Shown here piece after piece: positions 5,201 to 30,485 of a stretch of DNA of 64,000 nucleotides. Source of the stretch: a virus. Under the pieces are notes generated by a model. That model saw only the letters and a program-made list of their open reading frames with translations, ran no database searches and had not been told where the DNA came from. Each line of letters begins with the position of its first letter. The stretch's first letter is position 1. Made by a program: the position numbers and the translations under genes. The DNA lies in IMG/VR virus record IMGVR_UViG_3300022539_000610, positions 32,001-96,000 of that record; one strand, 5' to 3'.

Positions 5201-5340
5201 TCCTATATGGTAGGATATTCAGATTTATCAACAAAGGATTGTATATGAGGTAGGTCATGGTAGGTATGAGTGTGATTTGTTTCAATTCTTTTTCACTCTC
5301 CTTCCTTCACTTATATTATAATGGTTTTTAGAGGAAAACC

Positions 5341-5386
5341 AAAAAATCTCTCCACAAACCTGCTTGAGGTCATGTTGAAGAGATTT
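5341..5386 (-). terminator. probable intrinsic terminator
   Basis: minus strand AAATCTCT...AGAGATTTTTT downstream of 5421..6005. Confidence 0.5.
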
Positions 5387-5420
5387 GATGAGTCAAGTTG
5401 AGGTTGTGTTTGGTGGGTGT

Positions 5421-6005
5421 TTAGTCAACATCCTCACTGGCAGTCTTGATCATATTTTTGTAGTACTTCTTCTCCAGATCAGTCCGTTTCGCGGGGGGTA
5501 ATCCTTTCTTCTGAATCTTCTCAACGTTGTCAGCCATGTGTTTTGCTGCTGCCTTGAGGGCATCCTTAGATTTCTCATCTAGGTCTTCTTCTCGAAGTTT
5601 CTTCTTCTCCTTTAAATAACCTCCACAATTCACACAGAGTTCTTCCTTCGTTGGAAGCCCCACATAACCACAGGCAGGACAAGGGATTTTTCCCAGGGAA
5701 CTTAAGCCTTGTTCTAGAATTTTTTGTGCTTTTGACATTTTATTCTCCTTTATTTTTGTTAAAAGTAGTTGTATAGAGGAAGCTCTAGATTCACTCTTCC
5801 AGCCCATTTTTTTCGCACATTCAGGCCCAACCATTTTCTTTAGAACACCAACTACATACTGGTAGAATCTATCTGAGTCCTCTTCAAAGCCTTTTTTCTT
5901 TGCTCCTGCTTTTGCTTCTTCCCACTTACCCTCTAATTCAGACATGGGAATACCACAGGAGTCAGCTATTTTGTTTAGTAATGCTACTGGCATTTTTTCT
6001 CCCAC
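5421..6005 (-). CDS. putative head-internal multi-module protein with zinc ribbon
   Basis: CPAC..CVNC; internal MSKAQKILE motif. Confidence 0.65.
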   Translation of the reverse strand: MGEKMPVALLNKIADSCGIPMSELEGKWEEAKAGAKKKGFEEDSDRFYQYVVGVLKKMVGPECAKKMGWKSESRASSIQLLLTKIKENKMSKAQKILEQGLSSLGKIPCPACGYVGLPTKEELCVNCGGYLKEKKKLREEDLDEKSKDALKAAAKHMADNVEKIQKKGLPPAKRTDLEKKYYKNMIKTASEDVD

Positions 6006-6176
6006 TCCATTCTGTTTGGTTTTTTATTTCTTCTTCTACTCTTTTTGAGTATTCTTCCTCTGATTCATTATCATACCTATGAGGTGCGCCTGTATATGGA
6101 CTTAAAGCACCTCCTTCTACGATACCTTCTAACTCCTTTATCCTGGGAGTATCTAGAAAAGAAGTATCATTCTTTT

Positions 6177-6404
6177 TCATTCGATCACTTTTTTGGGAAG
6201 ATTCACCAAAAACCACTTTCCATTTACCTCCCGTTCAACCTTCAGAATCACACTCCTCTTAATAGGGGTGTTCTGCCCATTCAGCCTCCTCACATGTAAC
6301 CACTTTCGCCCAGCAGAATATTCATCGATGTCTCCCACATCAACTATTCCAGCCTTGGTGTGTACTCGAAGATGTTTCCGAGCTATTTTCTCATCATTTT
6401 TCAT
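6177..6404 (-). CDS. hypothetical protein
   Basis: 75 aa, GGAG RBS. Confidence 0.55.
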   Translation of the reverse strand: MKNDEKIARKHLRVHTKAGIVDVGDIDEYSAGRKWLHVRRLNGQNTPIKRSVILKVEREVNGKWFLVNLPKKVIE

Positions 6405-6461
6405 CTGTGTGGTGGCTCCTATAAAATGGCTATTTTGGTTAGTTTTTCTTTAAGGCTATAT

Positions 6462-6516
6462 GGTATAGCCTAATGGGAGATCTCTTAAGTAAGAGGGTGT
6501 TTTACTAATCTGACAA
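6462..6516 (-). promoter_or_regulatory. conserved ~55 bp intergenic motif, copy 1
   Basis: AAAACAC-N14-GATCTCCC-N7-TATACC, also at 32810 and 54375. Confidence 0.6.
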
Positions 6517-6526
6517 GGTATTAGAA

Positions 6527-7531
6527 TTAAATCTTTGACCAATACTCGTCAGGCATTTCTAAGGAAAGCTTAAGTGCCCCAACAGCACCTCCAAACTCAG
6601 GGTCCTGAGTGCACTCAACATTTCCACCTCCATAAGCCTCAAGGCCTTTTTCAACTGCCCGGTCTATGCCCCGGAGTCGTGAGCCCCCTCCAGCTATAAT
6701 GACATTATTACGTAGGTGCTCCTGAAAATCGGCATCAAATGAGCCTACCAGAGCCTGGACAGCTTTACAAATAGGATCGGTCATCTGGAGACAACAATCC
6801 TGCAAAAGTCCAGTAAGATCATAAGTTCCAGGTATTCCCTTCTCTGTTAACGTTACAATAACTTTTTCAGAAATTCCTACATAGCCATATTTCTCCTTGA
6901 GCCTTTGGATAATCTGAGGGGTTAACTGAACACCAGGATACAAGTTTAAAATAGCTTCGATAATTTTGCTGTCAAGGAAGTTCCCTGCAGTAGTGAGGGT
7001 AACTTGATCCCCCTCTTCTGGTAAGCTACCATGTATTCGACATGCATCCACTGTTCCTGCTCCCACATCAACCACCAGACACTCGTCAAACCTATCCATC
7101 CCATAGGCGACGGCAAAGGGCTCTGACACTATCAGAACCTTATCTACTAAGGAGCTACACAGGTCAACAAGAGCCTTTTTGTTATGTATACTTGCCTGAG
7201 CAGGTACTCCTATAGCAGCATAGATCTGGTCACCTTTCCTTTTGTCAGGAATAGCCTGGACAAGCATATCCCTTAAAATAAGGGTGGTTGCCTTGATAGA
7301 AGGTTCATCCTCCTTCATCACTCCATGCTCAAGGGGCCAGACCATGTTGAGAGCAAGCCGATTCTTTATTGCCTCCTGCCCCAGAAGGTAGTCTCCACCT
7401 TTAAGTCTTTTTCTTGATACTACATCCTTTGGGTATCCAATGCAACTCAGTGTTGTCAACCTTGCGCCTGTAGATGTTGCCAATGAAGTCCTGCTAGTCC
7501 CCAAGTCAAATCCGGTGTAAAAAATAGTCAT
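6527..7531 (-). CDS. MamK-like bacterial actin
   Basis: actin motifs GFDLGTS, VDVGAGT, AGGGSR plus MamK-like segments GYPKDV, IGVPA, VSEPF, DQVTLTxAGN, EMPxxYW. Confidence 0.85.
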   Translation of the reverse strand: MTIFYTGFDLGTSRTSLATSTGARLTTLSCIGYPKDVVSRKRLKGGDYLLGQEAIKNRLALNMVWPLEHGVMKEDEPSIKATTLILRDMLVQAIPDKRKGDQIYAAIGVPAQASIHNKKALVDLCSSLVDKVLIVSEPFAVAYGMDRFDECLVVDVGAGTVDACRIHGSLPEEGDQVTLTTAGNFLDSKIIEAILNLYPGVQLTPQIIQRLKEKYGYVGISEKVIVTLTEKGIPGTYDLTGLLQDCCLQMTDPICKAVQALVGSFDADFQEHLRNNVIIAGGGSRLRGIDRAVEKGLEAYGGGNVECTQDPEFGGAVGALKLSLEMPDEYWSKI

Positions 7532-7638
7532 TTTCTTTTTCCTCCTTTTTAAATTCTATTAGATTCAACTATCTGATTTTTCTTTTTTCTGTCACCTCTT
7601 GTGCCATAATATTAGGCTTGAGTAGCCAGTAAGGATTC

Positions 7639-8412
7639 TCATGCAATACTCGAACAGATACCAATACACTCAATTTCTTTTTCCTCTTTGCTGTCGTAAA
7701 AAGAGGACAATTCTTCACGTTCAATTCTTCCCCGAAATGCTTCTAGCGTTTCATCCTTAAAGAATGAAATGTCTTTACCTAAATATTGTCGCACTTCACG
7801 CTCTACACGCGCTCTGTCTGCATATACTTCTGGAAGTTTTTCATATAGAAGTTTCCAATGCTTCTTCCCTGCTCGAACACACCCACCGGAACAGTTGTTA
7901 TGTTTAAAGCCAAGTCTATACAATAGGGGTTCTTCTATCCCCACATTTCTTAAAAAGTCATTTATTTGTTCATTTGTTTTATTCTCTTGTATTAGGGGAA
8001 ATAAGAGTTCTGACTGTTTATCTTTTTTCATTGCCACCATTTGATAAACATCATCCAGTCTATTTGCTCTGTGGGTTTCACCAATTCCAATTCCAAAGAC
8101 TAAGGTGTCCCCATCTTTATAGAACCTCTGAAGCCTTTCTGCTTTTAGAATCCGTGAACAGAATGGCATACGATCGTTAGCTAAGGCATTATTATCATAA
8201 AACAACTCTTCTGGGCTTCTTCCATCTGAGTCTAAAGTTATCTTATGGTCAAAATAATTCTCTAAATCAGAGAGAAATCTATACAGATCAGGGTGTTCCC
8301 ATTTTGTATCGTTGAAATACAAAATGACATCTTCCTTCGGGTATTGTTTGAAAGTCCAATCAGCACACCATGCTGATGCCTTACCCCCGCTTATAGCTAC
8401 AATTACGCTCAT
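7639..8412 (-). CDS. PAPS-reductase-like PP-loop protein
   Basis: AISGGKAS, CSRILK, HNNCSGGC. Confidence 0.8.
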   Translation of the reverse strand: MSVIVAISGGKASAWCADWTFKQYPKEDVILYFNDTKWEHPDLYRFLSDLENYFDHKITLDSDGRSPEELFYDNNALANDRMPFCSRILKAERLQRFYKDGDTLVFGIGIGETHRANRLDDVYQMVAMKKDKQSELLFPLIQENKTNEQINDFLRNVGIEEPLLYRLGFKHNNCSGGCVRAGKKHWKLLYEKLPEVYADRARVEREVRQYLGKDISFFKDETLEAFRGRIEREELSSFYDSKEEKEIECIGICSSIA

Positions 8413-8443
8413 CTTTCAGTGTCTTAACAAGTTTCTCACTTGA

Positions 8444-8680
8444 TTAATCCTTCGGAAGGAGCTCTCCAAATATTGTAGAACGAACACTTTGGAAAGCATC
8501 TATATAACATGCAGCCATAGTCATTAATTTTTCTTCTCCCCCATCTAATGCAATCTTCTTCTTGCTTCTCCAATGTTTGATACTCCTGTCAAGGTACTCC
8601 ATAATAGTTTCTTTGTCAAAAGGAATTGTGTTACTCATTTTTACCGCCTCTCTAACAGGCGGTGGGTGTGGTGATGCCAT
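8444..8680 (-). CDS. hypothetical protein
   Basis: 78 aa ORF. Confidence 0.6.
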   Translation of the reverse strand: MASPHPPPVREAVKMSNTIPFDKETIMEYLDRSIKHWRSKKKIALDGGEEKLMTMAACYIDAFQSVRSTIFGELLPKD

Positions 8681-8691
8681 TTTATTACTCC

Positions 8692-9177
8692 TTAAACATC
8701 CAGTAGGTTAACTAAAAGTTTACATGCCTCAATCTCATCCTTTACCCAAGTGTGAACAGTAGCCTGTACAAAAGGATGCTGGCATCGGAGATCATTCCTA
8801 TGATCTTCATGTATTCCAATTACCATTTTCGCAGGATCGTCAAAGTACCAAGCCAACTCATAGATTGTCCCAATGGATGGCTCTTCAGGTGAGTAAATGT
8901 TCATGTTTGCAAGAGCAATAGTTGACCTCCTCACATGCTGCCTATCCTTATGAGGAAGGAGCCCCCAGACCTTCTGATTAAGAGCAATACTTAACCCGTT
9001 CTTTGAAATTCGACCATTTGTCAACACTTTCTGGTTCCATGCACTCTGACATGGATCAATGATAGTTAGATGACTATTAAACTTAGGTTCGTAATTAAAA
9101 AACTCTCTCACTCGCTTTCTCCACCTGTATGTTTCAGGATTTGTTGAAATCTGACCTGCTAAGTATACTATATACAT
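8692..9177 (-). CDS. nucleoside 2-deoxyribosyltransferase-like protein
   Basis: VYLAG...WR...DP...GTIYELAW. Confidence 0.7.
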   Translation of the reverse strand: MYIVYLAGQISTNPETYRWRKRVREFFNYEPKFNSHLTIIDPCQSAWNQKVLTNGRISKNGLSIALNQKVWGLLPHKDRQHVRRSTIALANMNIYSPEEPSIGTIYELAWYFDDPAKMVIGIHEDHRNDLRCQHPFVQATVHTWVKDEIEACKLLVNLLDV

Positions 9178-9207: not shown

Positions 9208-9600
9208 TCAAACTTCCCTGATTCTTAAATTCTCCTCAATCAAAGCCTGAAAAATAGCTAGTTTCCCTTTATCGTCTACCCTTCCTATGGCTATGTTCAA
9301 AAGTTCACTTATGTTTTTTGAAAGACCTCCAAGCACCCCACCTTGTCGTATGGCATCTAATTCTTTTTGAAGCTGAGTGACTTTGGCTTTCAAAACCCTA
9401 TTCTTCTCAACTACTTTAAGGAACGAATCATATGGTACAGCCTTATGAAAGTAGATCCTCGGATCAGCCTTCAACTGCTTAAAATACTTTGGATTCGCCC
9501 CCGTACTGACAGACGTCTTGGGGTAGATACTAAGTAAAGTTTTAGCTGATATTCTTACCCGTACATTATAAGTATTAGGATTGTATATTGTTAAATACAT
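9208..9600 (-). CDS. hypothetical protein with coiled coil
   Basis: 130 aa ORF. Confidence 0.6.
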   Translation of the reverse strand: MYLTIYNPNTYNVRVRISAKTLLSIYPKTSVSTGANPKYFKQLKADPRIYFHKAVPYDSFLKVVEKNRVLKAKVTQLQKELDAIRQGGVLGGLSKNISELLNIAIGRVDDKGKLAIFQALIEENLRIREV

Positions 9601-12227: not shown

Positions 12228-12469
12228 TTTACAAATGCTGGATGAATTGGATGTACTGCCTTTTCCCAATATAAATCTAAAGCTGCTACAAACAAGGAGT
12301 GCACTTTTTGAACCTCTTCTTCAGTCTTGTATGAAAAGAACTCAAACACTCCAGAACAATACTTAAATCCCCAAGTCCAATAAAATTTCTCTTCTTCAAC
12401 TGAGTACACATTCTGCACATGAGGAAGAACAGCATGATACCGATTGTCAATTTGAAATGTTGATTTCAT
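12224..12469 (-). CDS. hypothetical protein
   Basis: 81 aa, AAGGAG RBS. Confidence 0.65.
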   Translation of the reverse strand: MKSTFQIDNRYHAVLPHVQNVYSVEEEKFYWTWGFKYCSGVFEFFSYKTEEEVQKVHSLFVAALDLYWEKAVHPIHPAFVK

Positions 12470-12490
12470 TTTTATCTCCTTTCTAATAGG

Positions 12491-12574
12491 TGGTGGGTGA
12501 GAGAGGAATCGAACCTCTATGCTTTCGCAACGACTTTACAGGCCATGGGACTCACCACACTGTCCAACTCACCC
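12491..12574 (-). tRNA. tRNA-Tyr(GTA)
   Basis: GGGTGAG/CTCACCC acceptor, CT-GTA-AA loop, variable arm, TTCGATT T-loop, encoded ACCA. Confidence 0.9.
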
Positions 12575-12751
12575 GTTAGATTTGTTTTTGTCTTAGCAAC
12601 CATCTAAGAGGCTCTAATAATCTCCATAATATTCTGTATGCCCTTCCTCTAATCTTAATGTAGCCATATGTTTCTCCTGGTAACGGTTCCATTTTCGTTG
12701 CCATTCCCATTATTATCCTCCTTTCTCACCTTTTATTATAATGATTTTGAC

Positions 12752-13348
12752 TTAGATTTCTAATCCCATTTTTCTGCCTACTTTTTCAAGATAGGAGATT
12801 ATTTTATTTACTGATTCCTCAATGGTTTCTTTATCAGTCGTAACTGTTATTTCAGGGTCTTGTGGTTCTTCGTATGGAGCAGAGATACCAGTGAATTCTA
12901 GGATCTCCCCGGCCCTTGCCTTTTTATAAAGACCTTTCATATCCCTCTCTTCACAGGCCACTAAGGTACATTTGCAAAAGATCTCTATAAATTCACTTTT
13001 ATTAGCCAGATCTCTTGCCTTTTTTCTATCTACCCTGTATGGTGATATAAATGCTGTCATGTTGATGACTCCAGCCTGACTAAAGAGATGAGCCACTTCA
13101 CCGATTCTCCTAATGTTTTCCTCCCGATCCTTGGGTGAAAATCCTAGGTCTCTGTTCAGACCATGCCTGATATTATCCCCATCTAAGACAAAGGTGATGT
13201 GTCCGGCCTCATAAAGCCTCTTTTCTACTTCAACAGCCAGGGTGGATTTACCTGAACAAGAAAGACCCGTAAACCACAGGGTAACTCCTTTTTCCCTATT
13301 GACTATAGGGTCATGCCATGTGATGTTTTGACTTTTTGGATTATCCAT
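12752..13348 (-). CDS. cysC: adenylylsulfate kinase
   Basis: [31 protein letters not shown]. Confidence 0.95.
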
Positions 13349-13399
13349 TTCTTCTGGTAGCGGTTTGATATTGTCCTCCTTTCTTTATTATAGTAGTTT

Positions 13400-14266
13400 T
13401 CAAGTAAAATCTCTTAATTTTTCCCCTAATTCAATAGATGGGCGGACATCATCAATACCAAACCCTTTTCCATCTAAAATCCCTTGGTAAATCTCAGTGT
13501 GAAGATCCTTAAATGATCTATCAAGAGCAACTTTTTTTCCATCAATTATCATTTGACGAAAAGGTTGGAACCCCTCTGCACCATCTTCCTCGTTAATAGA
13601 GAGGAACAAATCTACTGCTGTCCTCTCTAATTGAAGGAGGCACTGGAGACTTCTATCTGTCCGTTTCTCAATACTAAATTCCTGCACAGGCCCAAACAAC
13701 CAGAGCAGTAAATCTAGAATGTGAGCTCCAATGTTCAATGCTAAACCTCCAGATTTCTTGATGTCCCCCTTCCAAGAAAAATCATACCATGGGCCACGAG
13801 GAGTAACATACTTCACAGTAACTAAACGAGGATAGAAATTATCTATTTGTCGCAATCTTTGTACATCTGGATGAAGCCGAAGTTGTAAAACTGAGTAAAC
13901 TCGTTGTCCAGTCTCCTGCTCCAACTGAGCTAAATAATCAAGATTCTCTGGGTTAATAGAAAGAGGCTTCTCACAGATCACATCACACCCCAGTTTCATA
14001 CCAAACCGACTGTGGGCCTCATGTAAGTAGTTAGGTGAGCAGACCGAAACATAATCGATCTGCTGTTTTGTACCCCTCAGTTTATTAACATATCTATCAA
14101 AAGCATCAAACTGAGTAAAGAAATTACATTTAGGAAAATAGCTATCAAGGATACCAACAGAGTCGTTAGGGTCAATAGCAGTAACTAACACGTTTCCTGT
14201 GTCCCGGATAGCCTTCATGTGTTTGGGCGCTATGAAACCGGCAGCTCCTATTAGAGCAAAATTCAT
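13400..14266 (-). CDS. WbpB/WlbA-like NDP-sugar 3-dehydrogenase (Gfo/Idh/MocA)
   Basis: FALIGAAGFIAPKH, CSPNYLH, CEKP, SWKGD. Confidence 0.9.
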   Translation of the reverse strand: MNFALIGAAGFIAPKHMKAIRDTGNVLVTAIDPNDSVGILDSYFPKCNFFTQFDAFDRYVNKLRGTKQQIDYVSVCSPNYLHEAHSRFGMKLGCDVICEKPLSINPENLDYLAQLEQETGQRVYSVLQLRLHPDVQRLRQIDNFYPRLVTVKYVTPRGPWYDFSWKGDIKKSGGLALNIGAHILDLLLWLFGPVQEFSIEKRTDRSLQCLLQLERTAVDLFLSINEEDGAEGFQPFRQMIIDGKKVALDRSFKDLHTEIYQGILDGKGFGIDDVRPSIELGEKLRDFT

Positions 14267-14360
14267 CTTACTCCTCCTATACCACCGACAGCTTGTTGTG
14301 GGTTTGCTTCTACACGCACATTAGTTGCTTTCGCATATGCTCTCAGATAATCACTACTTT

Positions 14361-15272
14361 TCATAACCTGCCCAGAATTTCTTGGAATTGCTCTACTCTA
14401 TTTAAGTCACTATGCCGTTTGCGTACAATAGCCATAGCTTTTACCCTCATTTCCATATAACCTTCTGGGTCGGACAAAACATTCCTTATCTGACTGAATA
14501 CATTGGCTTTTGTGATTGGAACATAGTGGACACCAGCCTCAAGTCCCATCACACCTAATTCTGAAAGTTCCTCCGCTAACATCAATACCCCAGCCGCCGG
14601 AATTTCAAAATATTTTGATACAGGAGCATCTTCAACTCCCTGTAGTCGTATATCATCTCGATAACTCCCACCTGTTGCAATAGCACAATAATATTTGTTG
14701 AGTAATTCAGGATACTTTTTAAATGGAACTCTTGGGAGCATAATTTCTAGTTGCGAAGTTTTGTGATTTTTAATATGCTCCCTTAAAGGGTAATATCTAT
14801 TTATAGAACCAAGCATTAAACACTTCATTATAGGATTGGGAAGAATTTGTAGTTTTGCGTATTTCTCATACGGAAAAAAGAAATAAGGAAAATGTATATA
14901 CTTAGAAACATATTGAGGATAGCCCTTCTTAAATGCTTCAATGCCTGCACCTATAATTACATCAAATCTATCAAACAATATATCCTTATTCTTTTGGCAT
15001 TCTTCACTTGCCCAACAATGTAAATCTTCAAAATAACCAATGAGCTTAACCTTCGAATCAAGTAAGCCTGGGGGTATTCCAGGTCTATTATGGTATGGTA
15101 CCGCATAGATAATTGCTACATCGAGACCATCCAAGTTAGGGGCATCTGTGTACACAATCGGAAACTTATACTGTTTGACCATTCTACTAAACAAGAATTT
15201 ACCCCTCTGGGATTGGACCCCTTTTTCATGGCGTCTCTTATAAAACGTGGGTATTATAATCGCTCCCTTCAT
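14361..15272 (-). CDS. glycosyltransferase (GT-B, CgeB-like)
   Basis: KYFEIPAAG...HYV C-terminal domain. Confidence 0.7.
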   Translation of the reverse strand: MKGAIIIPTFYKRRHEKGVQSQRGKFLFSRMVKQYKFPIVYTDAPNLDGLDVAIIYAVPYHNRPGIPPGLLDSKVKLIGYFEDLHCWASEECQKNKDILFDRFDVIIGAGIEAFKKGYPQYVSKYIHFPYFFFPYEKYAKLQILPNPIMKCLMLGSINRYYPLREHIKNHKTSQLEIMLPRVPFKKYPELLNKYYCAIATGGSYRDDIRLQGVEDAPVSKYFEIPAAGVLMLAEELSELGVMGLEAGVHYVPITKANVFSQIRNVLSDPEGYMEMRVKAMAIVRKRHSDLNRVEQFQEILGRL

Positions 15273-15988
15273 GGTTTCCTTGCCTTTATTCTCATATAAT
15301 ACCTGGGGGTCTTCAGTCCCATTGTTTCTAACAGCATTAGTACTTTCGTAAATGTATCAGGCAAAGAAGGATGGTGGCCCTCTACTTGAATGTCTTTAAA
15401 CCCAATTGTAGCTAAAACATATTTGATTGCTCTAGCTTCAAGACCCCTCGAATGGTGATACTCACTAAGTTTTTCAAGTGCCCTTTCACTGGTAGATAAA
15501 GTCTTTTTTCTTCTACCAAGAAAAGCCCGTCGAAACTTGAGCCACCAACCAAACCAAGAGTGAAACCGAGCATTTGAATCATTATCAGTAATTAACCAAC
15601 CACCAGGGGCAAGAACTCGATACGCTTCTTGAAGCCCTTGATCCCACCTATACAAATGGTGAAGGACAGAATAAGCAGTCACCACCCCAAATGTATCACC
15701 TGCAAAAGGAAGTTGAAAGCAAGATGCTTGAAGAACCTGTGAGTACCTATGAGCTAAATCAAGCATACCAAAGGAAATATCAACTCCTATCGCCTCTTGG
15801 TAGTGTGAGTGGACTAAATTAAGAATCTTTCCAGTCCCTGTTCCTATATCTAATAGACGAATATTCTTAGGTGCCAATCCATACAGGCACTGTAAAAATC
15901 CTTCATCTATTGGAGCAGTGGTATCATCGTATCGGCCGGCTATCTGGTCATGAAACTCCCGATTAGCCTGTTCAATGCCTTTACGCAA
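15269..15988 (-). CDS. class I SAM methyltransferase
   Basis: LLDIGTGTG, SVLHH, VLAPGG. Confidence 0.9.
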   Translation of the reverse strand: MRKGIEQANREFHDQIAGRYDDTTAPIDEGFLQCLYGLAPKNIRLLDIGTGTGKILNLVHSHYQEAIGVDISFGMLDLAHRYSQVLQASCFQLPFAGDTFGVVTAYSVLHHLYRWDQGLQEAYRVLAPGGWLITDNDSNARFHSWFGWWLKFRRAFLGRRKKTLSTSERALEKLSEYHHSRGLEARAIKYVLATIGFKDIQVEGHHPSLPDTFTKVLMLLETMGLKTPRYYMRIKARKP

Positions 15989-16661
15989 ATTGGCACCTGG
16001 TGTTAAACATTAAGTCTACCATCGAAAGATTCTCTACAAACTCCCCTCCCCATAACTGCAGATAGATTGGGTGGACAAAATCCTGATACTGCAACTGTAT
16101 CCCTGCCTTTTTGAAAACTTCCTCATCCATATAACGTTGTGAGCCCTTACCCGTCCCAGTAAGGTAAGTGTCAGCTTTTACCTCCTTAACTATTTGCATT
16201 ATCTTATCTAAGCCAGATCTCTCTATTCCATCACTCAGTTTGGAGGAGAAAACTAATTCTGCTCTTATATCTAACACCTTATTCATAACTCTAATTATCT
16301 CACAATTCAGATCCACTAACTTAGTCCACTCCTTTGCATAGATTTCTCTAAATACATCAATATACTCTGAGTAATATTTTGCCTTCCTATAAGCAAAGTC
16401 AATCGACTTTAAATGCTTCTTCCTCCAATTATCTGTAGTGACAATTTCAACCTCATTAATATTCTTAAAATCACCCTTGCCCAAAACAGGAACAGTTAAC
16501 CATGTTGTTCCATTTGGTGTTTTTATTCTCGTTCTGGTAACGTAACTCTTACCTCGCACAAGCTGAACATCGTCAAAAATAACAAAAACATCTGATAAGG
16601 CCATTTTGTGAAAAAGGCCTACCCAAGGAAGATAATTAGGTTGATGAACGGAAACAATCAT
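15981..16661 (-). CDS. WbqC-family protein
   Basis: HQPNYLPW, FDDVQ, WLTVP, NLSMVDL. Confidence 0.9.
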   Translation of the reverse strand: MIVSVHQPNYLPWVGLFHKMALSDVFVIFDDVQLVRGKSYVTRTRIKTPNGTTWLTVPVLGKGDFKNINEVEIVTTDNWRKKHLKSIDFAYRKAKYYSEYIDVFREIYAKEWTKLVDLNCEIIRVMNKVLDIRAELVFSSKLSDGIERSGLDKIMQIVKEVKADTYLTGTGKGSQRYMDEEVFKKAGIQLQYQDFVHPIYLQLWGGEFVENLSMVDLMFNTRCQFA

Positions 16662-17263
16662 TTATAAATAAAAACCGTAAAATCGTTAACTCTATAATCA
16701 TGCCGAAGCACAACCTTGGAACTGAGTACAAAAGCCATATCTAAAACTCGTGAAGGAGCTGCATAATACACACCAGGCATGCGACTTTTACTGGTACGGC
16801 TTAAAAAATTTACCCCCATACCTACTTTACAGACCTCAAACATCTTAGTCAATATAGTCCTTACATAAGAGTGCCAATCCGGGAATTCTAAACCGAACAA
16901 GCCTGAAGCAATCACATAGTCGTACTGTTTCACAGAAAAGCTGAAGATGTCAGAAACTTGAAATTCAAAATCTGGGTACCTTACACTCGCCTCTCTTACC
17001 ATACCTTCAACGATGTCAATTCCAATATACCTTTTAGGCTTTATTTCTTCTCTGTATATATAGCCTGCAAAATCTCCAAATCCACATCCTACGTCCAACA
17101 AAGCACAATTATTTAAATCTCCAATAGATCCTAAAACTTCAAATCTCACAGATTGTGATTCCTTATCACCATAATGTATGGCTTTCAACGTGGGACCATA
17201 AGTTGCAAGGGCTCTCTCAAAAACTTTACGGCGAAATTTCATATTTTCATCTAAAGTATTCAT
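16658..17263 (-). CDS. class I SAM methyltransferase
   Basis: LDVGCGFG, FNxL-like VNFLS, HDY. Confidence 0.85.
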   Translation of the reverse strand: MNTLDENMKFRRKVFERALATYGPTLKAIHYGDKESQSVRFEVLGSIGDLNNCALLDVGCGFGDFAGYIYREEIKPKRYIGIDIVEGMVREASVRYPDFEFQVSDIFSFSVKQYDYVIASGLFGLEFPDWHSYVRTILTKMFEVCKVGMGVNFLSRTSKSRMPGVYYAAPSRVLDMAFVLSSKVVLRHDYRVNDFTVFIYK

Positions 17264-18300
17264 AACTCCTCTAACACACTATTAGCAACATACTCAACTT
17301 CACTCAATTTCAATGTCGGGTATATCGGAAGTGAAACCACCTCTCTCATAAGAGCTTCAGTTGATGGAAAGTTCCGACTGTTCAAATCTAACAATCTATG
17401 TAGAGGTTGGTAAACACCATTACCACATTCAATTCCTTTCTTTTTCATTCGATCTTTAAATTTATTAATATCTCCTTTTATCCTTATAGCAAACCTATAG
17501 TAAGCAGGTTGTGCCACATCATCATAAACAGGAAGCAATATTCTTGACTCATTTTTCAACAATTCAACATACCTATTAAAACGAATTCTTCTTGCTGCAA
17601 CAAAGTCATCTAATTTCGTAAGCTGGATAATTCCCATAGCTGCTGCCATATCCGTCATTTGATAACTATAATACATCCTGGTAATCAATTGTCTAATTCT
17701 ATGTATGGTTTCTTTGTCATCAGATGACACCATTCCACCCGTACCAGTTGTTAACATTTTAGTGGCATAAAATGAAAAAATAGACACCTTGCCAAAAGAC
17801 CCCAGTTTCAATCCTCTATACCTACCACCAATACTTGCTGCACAATCTTCTATAACAGCAACCCCAAACTCTGAAAACTTGTCTATTTCCAGCACAGGAT
17901 AACCAAACATGTGGGGAACGATAATAGCTTTACTTTTCTTCGTAATAGCATCTTTAAAACATTCTAAAGAGATATTCATAGTAGAATAGTCCACATCAAC
18001 TACCACCGGTCGTGCTCCCACAAGCATAATGGCATGCAACAAAGAAATACATGTATAGCTAGGCACAATCACATCAAATCTCTCATCTACACCGAGTGCA
18101 ATTAATGAAAGATGTAATGCAGACATTCCAGTATTCACAGCAACAGCGTACTTCCGACTAACATAGCTACACATCTCGTATTCAAATTGGCGAACCTTAC
18201 TGCCCCATCCAAGATATTCACTTTGAATAACAGCCTCAACTGATTCCATTTCAGCTTGGGCTAAAGTAGGACGTGAATGGGGTATTATTTTATCACCCAT
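17260..18300 (-). CDS. DegT/DnrJ/EryC1/StrS aminotransferase
   Basis: IEDCAA, SFYATK (PLP lysine), SLPIYP. Confidence 0.92.
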   Translation of the reverse strand: MGDKIIPHSRPTLAQAEMESVEAVIQSEYLGWGSKVRQFEYEMCSYVSRKYAVAVNTGMSALHLSLIALGVDERFDVIVPSYTCISLLHAIMLVGARPVVVDVDYSTMNISLECFKDAITKKSKAIIVPHMFGYPVLEIDKFSEFGVAVIEDCAASIGGRYRGLKLGSFGKVSIFSFYATKMLTTGTGGMVSSDDKETIHRIRQLITRMYYSYQMTDMAAAMGIIQLTKLDDFVAARRIRFNRYVELLKNESRILLPVYDDVAQPAYYRFAIRIKGDINKFKDRMKKKGIECGNGVYQPLHRLLDLNSRNFPSTEALMREVVSLPIYPTLKLSEVEYVANSVLEEL

Positions 18301-18884
18301 CTAACCACCTCGAAAGCTTCGGCATATCTAATTCCAATTTGCATTCCTCTATTAATTGCTAAACTTCTTATACACTCTTCTGATAAATATCGCTTTCCTT
18401 GCTGAGAACTATAACACAATACGGCCTCTACCTTTTTTACAAGATGCCGTTCCTCAATAGGCACAAATGCTCCAGCATTGAATATATAATTATTGTAAGG
18501 AACCTCATATCCTAAAATGCTCGCTTTTTTAAAGGCCCTAAAACCCTCCTGAGAAACTACTTGATGATCTTGATGTGTATCATAAGTAGATGGTAAGAGA
18601 ACTAAATCTGGCTTGATGTCCTCTTCCAACTTAGTCATATTATCCAATATCTTTTGACGATGAATGGGGAAGTTTCTTACTTCGTATGTAAACAAAATCA
18701 AGTCAGCCCCTAAAACTTTCATAGCCTTCTTTACTTCCTCTCTCAAAATATAATGCGGGGAGCCAGCAGGGAATGAAAACCCCACATAGGTAACTTGGTC
18801 ATTTCTTTCCATAAATTTAAAGATTGTCCCTCCACAGCTAATTTCTCCATCATCAGTATGTGGGGCTAAAACAAGTACCTTCAT
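18285..18884 (-). CDS. PIG-L family deacetylase
   Basis: APHTDD, HQDH, AEAF. Confidence 0.9.
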   Translation of the reverse strand: MKVLVLAPHTDDGEISCGGTIFKFMERNDQVTYVGFSFPAGSPHYILREEVKKAMKVLGADLILFTYEVRNFPIHRQKILDNMTKLEEDIKPDLVLLPSTYDTHQDHQVVSQEGFRAFKKASILGYEVPYNNYIFNAGAFVPIEERHLVKKVEAVLCYSSQQGKRYLSEECIRSLAINRGMQIGIRYAEAFEVVRWVIK

Positions 18885-19432
18885 TTTCTCACTCCATATC
18901 CCAGCCAAAAACAAGAAGATTTTTGTCGGGGAATCTTAATAACTTTATCAAAAGCCACTACTGTTCTATAACGTCGAATGACATCCTTAACTGTTTTGAA
19001 CTTCCTAACATGTCCTCTTCCTCCCGCATTGGGTACAGATAATATAACTAATTTCCCTACTGGTATTGCATTAAGTATAGCAATATCCTGTATGAGATGT
19101 TCAAGAACTTCTAAGATAACAAAAGCATCATATTTAATAAATTCCTTTTGTACCCTCTTATCATAAAGACTTCCCACAGTAAATGTAAATTCAGGAACTG
19201 CCTTTTTAGCTATTCCTACAAGAACTCCAGCAAAATCTATTCCCCAGTAGGTCTTATATTTCTTCGCATGTAAAATTCTAGCCATATGTCCAGGGCCACA
19301 ACCTAAGTCTGCTATAGCAGCACTTGATGGAAGAAGACTTGCCACCATATCATACATCTTTCTCCAGTAAGGATTGAGGGTTAAGTCTTTCGGTATATCA
19401 GCATTATAGTATCCTGGTCCTTCTTCTTTCAT
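18881..19432 (-). CDS. class I SAM methyltransferase
   Basis: DLGCGPG, EVLEHL, SVPN. Confidence 0.85.
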   Translation of the reverse strand: MKEEGPGYYNADIPKDLTLNPYWRKMYDMVASLLPSSAAIADLGCGPGHMARILHAKKYKTYWGIDFAGVLVGIAKKAVPEFTFTVGSLYDKRVQKEFIKYDAFVILEVLEHLIQDIAILNAIPVGKLVILSVPNAGGRGHVRKFKTVKDVIRRYRTVVAFDKVIKIPRQKSSCFWLGYGVRK

Positions 19433-19455
19433 TTCTTATTCGCCTTTGTAAACAT

Positions 19456-20076
19456 TTACCATACGTACCCAAACTTTTCAAGTTCTTCACCCATCCACTT
19501 TTTAGCTATATCAACTTGGTTTTCATCCCATTCTGTCCAGTGAGGAAACCAGAGGTTCTTTGTTAGATGATCATGGGGTAAAGTTATTTCGTTGTACTTC
19601 AGTCCCAACTTTTCTACAAACCAACCAATAGGCCCTTTGATCAAATCTTCGAGCCTAACTATCTCAGAAGGGCATTTAGATATCGTTCTTTGCCCCAGTG
19701 CCCATAGCTTACAAATCTCTGAAAACTGATTTTTGTCTTTCTTGAACCATGGTCTTCCCATTCCAGACCTTACATAGTCTCGTCCATCCCTAACAAGATG
19801 CACTATGGTACAATCAGGATAATCCTCAGTCAAATCTTCTAAATGACAACGAGTACAAACAGAGCACTCGACATAGTGATAGCCTGCGTCTAAGGTAGCT
19901 GTTATCAAATTCAAGCGCCTCTTCTTTACTTCTTTTAAACTTTCAAGATACTTTTTACATATATAATTTTCCTCATGCATATCATGGAAGGCTTGCACTT
20001 CAAACACCTCTCCTAAAGCCGTAGCTAATGATTGTGATCCAGACCTTCCTGAAGAAGCAATGAATATAATTTTCAT
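19456..20076 (-). CDS. sulfotransferase-like protein
   Basis: SSGRSGS, HLVRDGRD. Confidence 0.75.
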   Translation of the reverse strand: MKIIFIASSGRSGSQSLATALGEVFEVQAFHDMHEENYICKKYLESLKEVKKRRLNLITATLDAGYHYVECSVCTRCHLEDLTEDYPDCTIVHLVRDGRDYVRSGMGRPWFKKDKNQFSEICKLWALGQRTISKCPSEIVRLEDLIKGPIGWFVEKLGLKYNEITLPHDHLTKNLWFPHWTEWDENQVDIAKKWMGEELEKFGYVW

Positions 20077-27136: not shown

Positions 27137-27925
27137 TCACTTTTTCCCTATTCCTCGTTTATGTTCTGGAAGATATTTCTTCAATGCAGCTACTCGGTCC
27201 AAAATCTCCGATGGTATATTGGCTTTCCAATCAAATGGGACATCTCTCCATTTATTGTGGCCATCTCGTATCCATCCCGTCCTTGCTAAGGTGCAGTTGT
27301 TGAAACCATCAGTATTAAATGCATGCTTCCAATTCTCATGATCAACATGCTCAACAAGCGGATGTCCTAGTACCCGAACATATGATTTTAAAAACCATTG
27401 ATCACAAACTCGTCTTCGCCCTCCACCATCTTGAACCTGCCGAGCAACACTTAATTTAACACCTCGACCAGAGCCCTTCGTCCCATTAAGAGCCATCTTT
27501 GCAATCCCGGAACCAATCTCATAAAATATAGTACGAGGCCTACATGTAAACCAATCAATCTTAGGATCTTGAAAAGCTTTGTGTTGATCCCTTAGTATAA
27601 ATGGAGATGAGTAATAATCCGCCGATTGAAACATAACTACCTTAGATTCCTCACTACAATTGTTAATCAATAAAACCATCTTGTCTGCAAGAGGAATCCA
27701 ATTCTCAACAGGTACATAGGTGATTTTAACGCAGCCCACTTGCTTTAATCGATCAGCATAATGCATAGCGGCATCTTGACCAAACATCTCAGGGTCATCC
27801 TGCTCTTCAGCACATACCAACTCCCATTCAAAATCAATCCCTTGCTGTCTACAAAGAGATTCAAGGGCTAACCAAGCAATATACTTTGCCCGAAATAATG
27901 GCATTCGAACGCTATGTTCAATCAT
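27137..27925 (-). CDS. putative GT-A fold protein
   Basis: SADYYS DxD-like motif, cluster context. Confidence 0.45.
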   Translation of the reverse strand: MIEHSVRMPLFRAKYIAWLALESLCRQQGIDFEWELVCAEEQDDPEMFGQDAAMHYADRLKQVGCVKITYVPVENWIPLADKMVLLINNCSEESKVVMFQSADYYSSPFILRDQHKAFQDPKIDWFTCRPRTIFYEIGSGIAKMALNGTKGSGRGVKLSVARQVQDGGGRRRVCDQWFLKSYVRVLGHPLVEHVDHENWKHAFNTDGFNNCTLARTGWIRDGHNKWRDVPFDWKANIPSEILDRVAALKKYLPEHKRGIGKK

Positions 27926-27926
27926 C

Positions 27927-28958
27927 CTAAACCTTTCCTGTAATCAATTTCATAATGGTATCAAACTTCTCCGCAAAGACCTTATTGTCCCAGGCATTAA
28001 CTAAAGTAGTAAAAGCCTGATTAGTAATATGATGATATTCCTTGTAATTAGTAACTACTTCTATGAGGGTGGATTCTAAATCACCCCAATCCCACTTAAC
28101 AGGAACGTATGTCTTCCATGGTTGATAAATGTCAGGCCAAGTCTCCAGATGTGACATATCTGGTTTAACAAGAATTGCTCCTTGTGAAATTGCTTCGAAG
28201 TCACGAAAAGAAATTTCTCCTAAACCCCAAGGACTCAAACAAACCTTTGAACGTGACATCTTCTCATGGTAGTCTGAACCACGGCACTTTCCAGAGACAG
28301 TGAAATTGTTCCTTTGTACAATCTCATCTAAAATAGTCTCACAGGAGGCACGATGAAAGGCATAATGATCATCTATCTTTCCTAAGTTCTCGCGCTCAAC
28401 TTTCGTTGAGTGCTTCGTCTTAATACTAAAATGAATGTCAATGTCACGAGCCTTCTTCCGGTCAGACTTAGTTCGGATGTCAACCCCTTCTCGTTCCATC
28501 AAACCAAGATTCCACCCCAGATGAACTTTACTCAATACTTGATCATCTACATTATGATCTACTTCAGTAGTATTAGCCAACTGAGGACTCAACTTACTCA
28601 ATTGAAAATAGTGCCATCGTGACCTTGGATACTTTGTCTTATAAAGATTTCTATCGATTAGGAGTTGCTTCTTAACATAACCAATAATTTTTTCAGGGTA
28701 CTGCTTCACAAGCCGCATTTTAGCCGTTCCAGTACTGGCCGCATCGTCAAAAAAAACAATAGGTTTACCCAATTCTAAAAACCAATCAAAATCGATCTCC
28801 TTCTTAATACCAGTCATCTGAATGAAAATATAGTCAGCACTATCTGGAGTTTGTATAAACTCATATCCCAACTGCTTGAGTTCCTTAGAGGCTCGGTAAA
28901 TGGGATGTATCTGCCCTCTCGCAATCTTTCTAGAACACGCTGCAATATATATCTTCAT
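27927..28958 (-). CDS. glycosyltransferase (GT-B)
   Basis: CLSPWGLGE..RDFEA..GAILVKP. Confidence 0.75.
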   Translation of the reverse strand: MKIYIAACSRKIARGQIHPIYRASKELKQLGYEFIQTPDSADYIFIQMTGIKKEIDFDWFLELGKPIVFFDDAASTGTAKMRLVKQYPEKIIGYVKKQLLIDRNLYKTKYPRSRWHYFQLSKLSPQLANTTEVDHNVDDQVLSKVHLGWNLGLMEREGVDIRTKSDRKKARDIDIHFSIKTKHSTKVERENLGKIDDHYAFHRASCETILDEIVQRNNFTVSGKCRGSDYHEKMSRSKVCLSPWGLGEISFRDFEAISQGAILVKPDMSHLETWPDIYQPWKTYVPVKWDWGDLESTLIEVVTNYKEYHHITNQAFTTLVNAWDNKVFAEKFDTIMKLITGKV

Positions 28959-29605
28959 CTTTTCACCATAAATCCAAAGTTAGAAACCTTAAGCCAAACA
29001 GCAAACTCTGATTTCTCAAAATCTGTCAGCCCCTTGTCATCCATTCTATACTTAGATGCAACAAAGTCTAAGAAGGAAGTATTATAATCCACATCATGCG
29101 AACACAGCACCCCACCTTTATTAAGTTTAGACCAAAATGTTTCAAACTCCCACAACTGATGGCCGCGTCTATGTGTCGAATCATGTAAGAAAAGATCAAG
29201 TTTTAGTCTCTTAAACTCATCAGACTCAATATAGTCCTGTATCGATATGTGCATTTGACGACACCATTTCCTGAGATGCTTTGGAATTAAATCCCCTGTT
29301 TTCTTATTGTCACGCTCAATTGTAATTAATAATGGTGGAGCATTATCATTAGCTTGGACATTCTTTGATAATGCCTCTAAAATGAAACTAGAGGATTTCC
29401 CCAGCCCGGTACCAGTTTCTAAGCAAACTTGAGGCTTGAAGAATCTCACTACAGCATAAAGCATAAAGCAATCATCACTCCCCATCAAACCTTTGGGATC
29501 TTCTATCCTTGTTGAAAGATCTTGAAAAAACCCACTCCCTTTTACTTCCTGCATATAATCATAAAGTTCTTGCCACTTTATCCTAATTCTGCCTAACGCA
29601 CCCAT
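28955..29605 (-). CDS. class I SAM methyltransferase (Methyltransf_24-like)
   Basis: LETGTGLG, FLHDSTH, GGVLCSHD. Confidence 0.8.
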   Translation of the reverse strand: MGALGRIRIKWQELYDYMQEVKGSGFFQDLSTRIEDPKGLMGSDDCFMLYAVVRFFKPQVCLETGTGLGKSSSFILEALSKNVQANDNAPPLLITIERDNKKTGDLIPKHLRKWCRQMHISIQDYIESDEFKRLKLDLFLHDSTHRRGHQLWEFETFWSKLNKGGVLCSHDVDYNTSFLDFVASKYRMDDKGLTDFEKSEFAVWLKVSNFGFMVKR

Positions 29606-30485
29606 TTGCCCTTCCCCCTTGTGTTAGATAGACAGTAAACAAAACATGTAACTCCGCACTATGAAAAGTATAAGAATCAAGGAAATCTTTCAACTCATTA
29701 AGAATAACAGAGATTTCAAGTTGAGTCAGTTTCTTTTTCCATAAATTTACAGATTCAACATATATACCTTCTTTAGATTCTAATTCTTGATATGAAGTAT
29801 AAGGACTACTGATCTCCTCCAACATTCCAGAAACTACTTCCTTACTACTATCAACCTTCAACTTCCTGAGAATAACCTTTAAGGTCGCCATAGGATGGGT
29901 AACAAGCTCTTCATAAGAGACGATACCTACTGTACTATCTGCAGAGCTTTCTACATCTATTATTTGTAAGGATTGAAAGAATCGACGAAGCAGTTGACTA
30001 ACATAAGCGGCTGTCTTCTCTAACTGTTGTAACCTAATATTTTCCTCTATACTTACCCATGCATCTCCCACATTACTCCAGTATTTTCTAGAAGCACATA
30101 CAGCAAAAGGATTCCTCATCATATAAATAAATCTACCACTTAACTCCTGATCATCGTAAGGAAAAGCCAATTTGTATAATTTAAGATCATGTTCACCTTT
30201 AGGAGTCTTATGAAGTCTAACAACGCACTCACTATCTTCAAAATGGGAAAGAATAGCCTGTCTGACAACCATAGAATTGGAACAATCCTTATGTCCAATC
30301 TTTTCCCAGAAGCTATCTACCTTCCACTCCATAAATTTTTTGATTTGCTTTATATCATACTTTCCATGAATAATACGCATAAGATCAAAATCATTAGGGG
30401 TAACATCTATCTCCGGATGAGCTCCGAGTAACCTCTGAAGTAGAGTTGTACCTGTTCTCTGTTCACCAAAAATAAAAACGTTCAT
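29583..30485 (-). CDS. sulfotransferase
   Basis: GEQRTGTTLL, KTP, RNP, YEELV. Confidence 0.85.
   Translation of the reverse strand: MNVFIFGEQRTGTTLLQRLLGAHPEIDVTPNDFDLMRIIHGKYDIKQIKKFMEWKVDSFWEKIGHKDCSNSMVVRQAILSHFEDSECVVRLHKTPKGEHDLKLYKLAFPYDDQELSGRFIYMMRNPFAVCASRKYWSNVGDAWVSIEENIRLQQLEKTAAYVSQLLRRFFQSLQIIDVESSADSTVGIVSYEELVTHPMATLKVILRKLKVDSSKEVVSGMLEEISSPYTSYQELESKEGIYVESVNLWKKKLTQLEISVILNELKDFLDSYTFHSAELHVLFTVYLTQGGRANGCVRQN

Follow-up and report, generated by a model that had tools for sequence, protein, structure and literature searches.

Bbp, the 'big bacteria protein', was described as an actin-like family that lies between MamK and MreB, is carried mostly by giant or filamentous bacteria and appears to have moved horizontally several times (PMC10580974; Geelhoed et al. 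2023, Microbiol Spectr), including between Gammaproteobacteria and Desulfobacterota. It lacks the RodZ-interaction site of MreB, is expressed in Desulfonema, accompanies MamK in two magnetotactic multicellular genera and was proposed to serve structure or transport in very large cells; phages are not mentioned in that work (PMC10580974). MamK-like open reading frames (ORFs) had been noted earlier in Beggiatoaceae and Thiomargarita (bioRxiv 10.1101/2022.04.11.487978). Are such genes confined to cells? Here we describe one on a virus. It lies in a stretch of 64,000 nucleotides, called the window in what follows, which corresponds to bases 32001-96000 of the 114-kb IMG/VR virus record IMGVR_UViG_3300022539_000610, rated 53% complete. 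The record carries the tail sheath (238 bits), baseplate wedge and head maturation protease of a T4-like myovirus. The original prediction, made from the sequence of the window, read the gene as a phage-encoded MamK-like actin. As judged from profile scores, identities and phylogeny, it is a phage-borne member of the Bbp family and not a magnetosome MamK.

How does this locus compare with the systems described so far? The phage protein shares with Bbp its clade, its length (334-335 amino acids (aa)), its ATPase motifs, a sub-threshold score against the NCBIfam MamK profile and the family of its upstream partner. It differs in being encoded by a phage and in branching outside the cellular Bbp clade, in a partner without a hydrophobic anchor, in a phage-only SH3-like gene 3' of the actin gene and, in some phage-type alleles, in an intein. 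The adaptor-like partner with its shared C-terminal motif, the phage-only 75-aa protein and the homing intein in the ATP-binding motif are new here. Saltatorellin is a MamK-like, non-magnetosome protein that forms filaments in E. coli and Magnetospirillum (bioRxiv 10.1101/817700). It and the other MamK-like actins of Planctomycetota and Saltatorellota belong, like the window actin, to the non-magnetosome MamK group, and the upstream partner in Planctomycetota loci matches the adaptor profile weakly; however, these actins are cellular, fall in another subclade and are 45-48% identical to the phage protein. The closest functional precedent is AlpC/AlpA of prophage CGP3, a phage actin filament with a small adaptor on which efficient replication and transport of the viral DNA depend (PMC4446434, PMC5539076). 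The phage-encoded actin-like protein and the small adaptor are common to both, but AlpC belongs to an unrelated actin branch, its carrier is a temperate prophage of the actinobacterium Corynebacterium, and the AlpA-type adaptor binds DNA sites, whereas neither such sites nor a DNA-binding fold were seen in the window module. The PhuZ tubulin spindle of nucleus-forming jumbo phages, a phage-encoded cytoskeletal polymer which positions the replication compartment and delivers capsids (PMC8314001), serves as a model of what the window module may do; with a tubulin fold on one side and an actin fold on the other, the likeness is one of analogy only.

Placement of the window actin among MamK-related proteins

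The NCBIfam profile for MamK (NF040964) has a curated cut-off of 400 bits, which the window actin misses with 354.2 bits; named MamKs score 496-545, cellular Bbp proteins 372-398 and other phage copies 381-385. The second-best match by family and by structure is BeeR (NF053558, PDB 8r2n), whose profile gives 177 bits against a cut-off of 530, so that membership does not follow, and the NCBIfam MreB profile gives 41. Matches in Pfam are MreB_Mbl (51 bits), Actin (33) and ParM_N (13, below its cut-off of 27.4), and PHROG 691 'partition protein' is hit weakly (27 bits). Among solved structures the MamK entries 5ljw, 5jyg and 5ljv come first (244-246 bits, E about 1e-71), BeeR 8r2n reaches 122 bits and MreB 1jce 31. 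An AlphaFold2 model of the window actin, built with 25 homologs (predicted local distance difference test (pLDDT) 72.7, weak at residues 30-70), gave the MamK filament 5ljv as its top match (template modelling (TM) score 0.79), followed by BeeR and then MreB. The fold and a filament-type architecture as in MamK are to be expected. The segments from which a MamK relative had been recognised (GYPKDV, IGVPA.AS..NK, VSEPF.V.YG.D, DQVTLT.AGN.LD and GAL.L..E.P..YW) are all present in the alignment to the PDB MamK sequences, and with 354 bits for MamK, 41 for MreB and 13 for ParM_N the protein is indeed nearer to the MamK-related group than to MreB, ParM or other actin-like proteins (Alps).

The identities give a more precise placement. 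At 60-70% identity, the nearest matches in the databases are proteins of Desulfonema, Desulfococcaceae, Thiothrix, Candidatus (Ca.) Parabeggiatoa, Thiomargarita, Thioploca, Ca. Marithrix and Ca. Electrothrix gigas, with Zetaproteobacteria, Chromatiaceae and Riflebacteria likewise among the relatives. This is the taxon set published as Bbp (PMC10580974); with few exceptions, the nearest relatives in cells are not magnetotactic. Identity is 63% to the Bbp of Ca. Electrothrix gigas and about 40-45% to named MamKs (~40% for Magnetococcus). Canonical MreB was found above the cut-off in two complete Bbp-carrying genomes, those of Desulfonema magnum and Ca. Thiothrix singaporensis; Bbp is therefore an additional cytoskeletal protein in cells.

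A phylogeny of 71 rows (IQ-TREE, LG+C20 with posterior mean site frequencies (PMSF)) puts the named MamKs in a clade of their own (support 100/100) on a long separate branch of ~1.2 substitutions per site. The window actin falls within a clade (100/99) together with E. gigas (L027), Desulfonema, Thiothrix, Thiomargarita, Beggiatoa-type bacteria, Zetaproteobacteria and Riflebacteria, and the cellular proteobacterial Bbp proteins (39 rows) form a clade with support 94/97. The phage homologs do group: the window actin with P0002, P0122 and L083 (group A, 100/100), and L002, L091, L103, L120 and L131 with L111 (group B, 100/99). Both groups, as well as the sequences P0003, P0012/13 and P0015, for which no context is available, are basal to the cellular Bbp clade. 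Do the phage copies form a single clade? Forcing the phage copies to be monophyletic improved the log-likelihood by 6 units over that of the free search (p = 0.61 in the approximately unbiased test), so monophyly is not rejected; support is weak along the backbone around the phage groups, which may form one clade or a grade. A 'phage-only clade' would in any case not be strictly true because L111, inside group B, looks cellular, with transposase-like ORFs and an ExeA-like adaptor. The sequences suggest that the actin was probably exchanged between phages and cells more than once, in an original direction that cannot be read from a tree without a secure root.

The MamK-like identity first proposed therefore stands in part. 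The protein is full length and MamK-related, and it does not branch within MreB, ParM or other Alps; it is not of the magnetosome type, since it scores 354 bits against the 400 required and sits in a separately named clade. The annotated neighbours of the gene are phage genes or genes of nucleotide and sulfur metabolism, with no magnetosome context, although mam genes were not explicitly searched for in the 114-kb record, and the partners of the actin are other proteins than those of MamK. Because the window actin is not a magnetosome-type MamK and its clade has mostly non-magnetotactic carriers, the suggestion that the phage interferes with the positioning of host organelles such as magnetosomes finds no support.

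Is the gene intact? As the original prediction claimed, it encodes a complete actin-fold ATPase (Table 1), and the residues expected of such an enzyme are conserved: D9-G11-T12, E137, D155, G157-G159-T160 and G281-G283, with E137 and D155 corresponding to MamK E143 and D161. The phosphate-1, phosphate-2 and adenosine motifs and the catalytic residues are invariant across the phage actin copies. The gene is under purifying selection: against L083, pN is 0.076 and pS 0.689, giving a ratio of non-synonymous to synonymous change (dN/dS) of 0.043 with synonymous sites saturated. Its G+C fraction is 0.455, the phage ORF mean being 0.403 +/- 0.028. The window actin (P0001) has a Glu at the position of MamK A278, and the A278D mutant of MamK is non-polymerising (PDB 5ljw title). 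A non-polymerising window actin was considered for this reason and rejected: an acidic residue (E or D) stands at this position in 9 of 11 genuine Magnetococcales MamKs, so the Glu need not prevent assembly. With its motifs intact, the gene is best explained as a functional phage version of Bbp, its activity being a prediction.

Gene partners and related phages

Copies of the actin gene were found on at least nine phage-type contigs, which belong to two lineages (genomic contexts were taken from scans of viral, genome and metagenome contigs; P0002, P0003, P0012, P0013, P0015 and P0246 have none). Eight of these are metagenome contigs related to the window phage and syntenic with it (L083, L100, L120, L091, L093, L103, L104 and L131). 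The actins of L083 and L100 are 87% identical to the window protein, and L103 and L131 also encode a T4-type RNA ligase, thymidylate synthase, DNA methyltransferase and helicase pieces. The second lineage is represented by one further IMG/VR record found in an alignment-based scan (L002, also G001; 273.5 kb, 97% complete, 35.8% G+C), which has just 13 ORFs in common with the window phage. An exact-peptide scan of IMG/VR with the single window protein gave no match, and the phage genomes deposited in INPHARED hold no homolog beyond a 24% match. A lone host gene, or one in decay, is thereby excluded, given the dN/dS of 0.04, the intact ATPase residues and the further phage-type copies.

Which genes accompany the actin? 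In cellular loci a protein of ~110-140 aa is encoded directly upstream of bbp on the same strand, and one BLAST cluster of it is present in 55 of 94 loci; for the E. gigas cluster, the literature mentions just 'a hypothetical protein without conserved domains' (PMC10580974). A hidden Markov model (HMM) of this protein, run against the whole 114-kb phage record, gave a sole match (E 2.6e-7), the adaptor-like gene of Table 1, and BLASTP independently ties the same gene to the ORF directly 5' of the actin gene in L103/L104. Across loci, the ORF immediately 5' of the actin gene matches the HMM in 65 of the 82 cellular loci with enough flank and in six of seven phage loci (L091/L093, L103/L104, L131 and L002); no Pfam family covers the protein. 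In the cellular version a hydrophobic N-terminal segment (48 of 55) is followed by a middle part resembling a coiled coil and by the conserved C-terminal motif KLAxF..[IL]E[ED]N..[IL]R. None of the phage adaptors has a hydrophobic segment; they have in common a different N-terminal domain. The C-terminal motif is likewise found at the end of a receiver-domain protein in Desulfobacterales and of an ExeA/GspA-like protein of 480 aa in L111, and it occurs three times in one Planctomycetota protein. A constant C-terminal peptide with interchangeable N-terminal domains, encoded beside an actin gene, points to an adaptor that would bind the filament. Examples of the family in cellular loci are L090:5412-5822, L003:4667-5740, L068:5028-5903 and L111:1651-3090, and the version with the hydrophobic anchor is that of most Gammaproteobacteria.

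The gene directly downstream of the actin encodes a small protein of 75 aa. Homologs stand directly 3' of the actin gene in L083, L100, L120, L091, L093, L103/L104 and L131, and none was found in cellular loci, in L002 or in L111. Its AlphaFold2 model (pLDDT 77.8) has six strands, for which Foldseek returned generic small beta-barrels only, and its profile matches bacterial SH3_3 repeats weakly. Members of the family are scarce (30 representative clusters among 1.84 billion proteins); profile matches to two giant proteins were discounted, as they look compositional. Adaptor-like protein, actin and SH3-like protein are best explained as a conserved three-gene phage module.

Table 1. Features around the actin gene (window coordinates)
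Feature	Position	Strand	Remarks
75-aa accessory protein, small SH3/Sm-like beta-barrel	6177..6404	(-)	directly downstream of actin gene
Hairpin AGGCUAUA-CCA-UAUAGCCU	6453..6471	(-)	8-bp perfect stem, 3-nt loop; between actin gene and 75-aa gene
Bbp-type (MamK-related) actin-like ATPase gene	6527..7531	(-)	ATG start, 334 aa; intact, no intein
Shine-Dalgarno AAGGAGG	7541..7547	(-)	9 nt 5' of actin ATG; read from sequence
PAPS-reductase-like (PP-loop) gene	7639-8412	(-)	Pfam PAPS_reduct 37 bits
78-aa ORF	8444-8680	(-)	
Nucleoside 2-deoxyribosyltransferase-like ORF	8692-9177	(-)	Pfam Nuc_deoxyri_tr2 23.6 bits, below cut-off
Adaptor-like partner	9208..9600	(-)	130 aa, C-terminus KLAIFQALIEENLRIREV; coiled-coil-like middle, no hydrophobic anchor

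The three genes between actin and adaptor in the window probably lie outside the module, because the adaptor abuts the actin gene in group B contigs and L083 lacks the PAPS-reductase gene. The PAPS-reductase-like and deoxyribosyltransferase-like genes may form a pair for nucleotide or DNA modification; together with an RRXRR-HNH (IscB-type) protein they are the annotated neighbours of the actin, the deoxyribosyltransferase likeness being weak. The hairpin between the actin and 75-aa genes has no U-tract 3' of it, and the surrounding intergenic RNA folds no better than shuffled sequences (z -0.84). Scans for sigma-70-like promoters and terminators around the module gave nothing convincing.

Some related alleles are interrupted. 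In L131 (5673-8102, (+)) the actin homolog is a single ORF of 810 aa with an in-frame insert of 465 aa, placed between G and T of the DxGxGT phosphate-2 motif: it begins with Cys after DIGAG and ends with VFVHN, followed by Thr. The insert matches Pfam Intein_splicing with 94 bits and has a weak HNH domain and several CxxC...H..C zinc-finger-like repeats. In P0246 (706 aa) this site is occupied by a second, homologous intein, 49% identical to the first; the extein around it is only 62% identical. The site is empty in the window allele. A Hint domain, the N-terminal Cys, the C-terminal His-Asn, the +1 nucleophile and the conserved site are all present in L131 and P0246. Within the literature searched, no earlier natural intein was found in an actin-like protein or in an actin-fold phosphate-binding loop. 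Homing inteins typically occupy sites that cannot be lost, and their presence in two alleles speaks for a functional phage actin.

Several side observations concern these and further sequences. The large helicase gene of L131, a homolog of the record ORF 27182-29914, is in two pieces (14038-17903) with an HNH-endonuclease ORF (15071-16021) between them, which could be an intron or another mobile insertion. In L154 (9995-10892) and L155 (9929-11118) the actin homolog appears as two overlapping ORFs, through frameshift, sequencing error or decay. P0247 (606 aa) was considered as a fusion and rejected, as it looks like a frameshifted artefact. A six-gene cluster at 194.6-200.9 kb of G001 is shared with the window phage, and G001 has giant ORFs of 3620, 2566, 2454 and 2442 aa (e.g. 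254936-265795, 12237-19934 and 266201-273562). The phrog_23 tail sheath was not found in this jumbo phage. Terminase_6N matched in neither phage record and is uninformative.

Possible roles of a phage actin filament

What would a phage do with such a set of genes? By analogy with the systems above, a filament run by the phage itself might carry or place phage cargo, be it DNA, replication sites or capsids, within a large host cell. We regard this reading, put forward for DNA and capsids in the original prediction, as the most likely of those considered, at about even odds. The actin would bind ATP and polymerise in the infected cell, like MamK and the MamK-like saltatorellin; polymerisation is expected because the motifs are intact and both of these proteins form filaments. 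The C-terminal helix of the adaptor (the motif given above) would dock on the filament, leaving the N-terminal domain to pick the cargo. In the phage adaptor a soluble, phage-specific domain takes the place of the hydrophobic N-terminus of most cellular versions, which is probably a membrane anchor, and the SH3-like protein would be a further, phage-only accessory. In this way the phage might run or re-aim an actin system for its DNA, replication sites or capsids where a large cell is limited by diffusion. The system would then stand beside AlpC/AlpA and be the actin equivalent of the PhuZ tubulin spindle.

Several points weigh against a phage-run filament. We know of no experiment on any Bbp that shows filaments or function. 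That the adaptor motif docks on actin is read from gene adjacency and conservation, and in the window three genes separate adaptor and actin, which directly abut in group B. The unrelated jumbo phage L002 has the adaptor but lacks the 75-aa protein. Fold and atlas searches with the phage adaptor N-terminal domain and the 75-aa protein returned nothing informative (generic or sub-threshold leads), so no cargo is indicated. The T4 late promoter TATAAATA is not enriched and none lies near the module, so that it gives no sign of expression timing. As for a large host, five candidate genomes contain nothing close to the phage tRNA-Tyr, and a comparison of 20 kb of phage DNA with 55 genomes from the order of Ca. 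Parabeggiatoa yielded two marginal matches of 28-35 nt, which is chance level (this nucleotide search covered one 20-kb segment and one order).

The main rival is a takeover of the host cytoskeleton, which we consider possible and clearly less probable than a filament of the phage's own. In a host with a Bbp of its own, the phage actin would co-polymerise with the host Bbp filaments or cap them, and the anchor-less adaptor would compete with the membrane-anchored one of the host; host filaments would end up detached or remodelled and would not carry phage cargo. Phage and cellular proteins that are 60-69% identical and share an adaptor motif, a hydrophobic anchor missing specifically from the phage adaptor and the expression of Bbp in Desulfonema (PMC10580974) would all suit such a takeover; however, the phage copies stand apart from all cellular Bbp proteins sampled, in deep groups of their own, which an autonomous system fits better than a mimic that tracks its host, and a pure competitor would need neither a strongly constrained, intact ATPase nor two conserved partners.

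Could the module instead segregate phage genomes, for instance in a plasmid-like carrier state, as a type II (ParMRC/AlpAC-like) system in which an actin works with a DNA-binding adaptor? An actin-like ATPase with small neighbouring genes does recall parM-parR, alfA-alfB and alpC-alpA, and there is the weak match to the PHROG 691 partition protein. Yet no iterated centromere-like repeats were found in 5300-8800, neither small partner has a recognisable DNA-binding fold or family, ParM-family scores are negligible, the phage has a T4-like virulent architecture, and the homologous adaptor has a membrane-type anchor in most cellular loci, which is not suggestive of DNA binding. We therefore consider segregation improbable.

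The last two readings are contradicted by the evidence and we give them hardly any weight. A true magnetosome MamK, with which a phage of a magnetotactic bacterium would tamper with magnetosome chain positioning, could appeal to MamK being the top solved-structure and NCBIfam match and to the two magnetotactic multicellular genera with both proteins (PMC10580974), but it founders on the sub-threshold score, the long, fully supported branch that separates the named MamKs, the low identity to them and the non-magnetotactic relatives. A functionless passenger, a host gene recently captured and on its way to decay, would explain the G+C content somewhat above the phage mean, but not the intact frame, ribosome-binding site and catalytic residues, the low dN/dS with saturated dS, the recurrence in two lineages with conserved partners or the deep phage-specific branches.

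Hosts and the spread of bbp

In which cells might such a phage replicate? The original prediction took the gene as a possible hint at the host lineage. The hint now points, weakly, to the Bbp-carrying big bacteria and away from magnetotactic bacteria; so little weight is given to it since the phage copies lie outside all host lineages sampled and nothing was found that ties the phage directly to a host. The phage loci L091/L093 and the cellular locus L118 come from consecutively numbered metagenomes, a co-occurrence of phages and cells that is a hint at most.

A wider reading, which we put forward tentatively and think rather unlikely as a whole, is that phages of giant and filamentous sediment bacteria would carry a self-contained actin transport system, made up of a Bbp actin, a cargo adaptor and an SH3-like accessory, which would be the first actin counterpart of PhuZ in T4-like and jumbo phages, and that phages would be the vehicle, possibly the source, of the scattered bbp genes. 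The part on spread draws on the basal position of the phage copies relative to the cellular clade and on the repeated horizontal transfer called for by the published tree. The only phage-built cytoskeletons known to us so far are the PhuZ tubulin and AlpC; if the reading is true, T4-like phages and the MamK branch of actins would join this short list.

What does this mean for Bbp? The location on a phage offers a concrete vehicle for the inferred horizontal spread of bbp. To our knowledge, hardly any viruses of giant sulfur bacteria and their neighbours are known, and a phage bbp gene points toward them. Carriers of Bbp do not lend themselves to genetic work, and many of them have no culture. 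The protein was put forward in 2023 as a possible genetic basis of very large cells; a compact phage version with two dedicated partners, together with an adaptor motif that recurs across cellular loci, provides a small set of proteins that can be expressed and tested. The family has so far been reported from bacteria, mostly giant or filamentous ones, and a phage-borne copy bears on what Bbp does.

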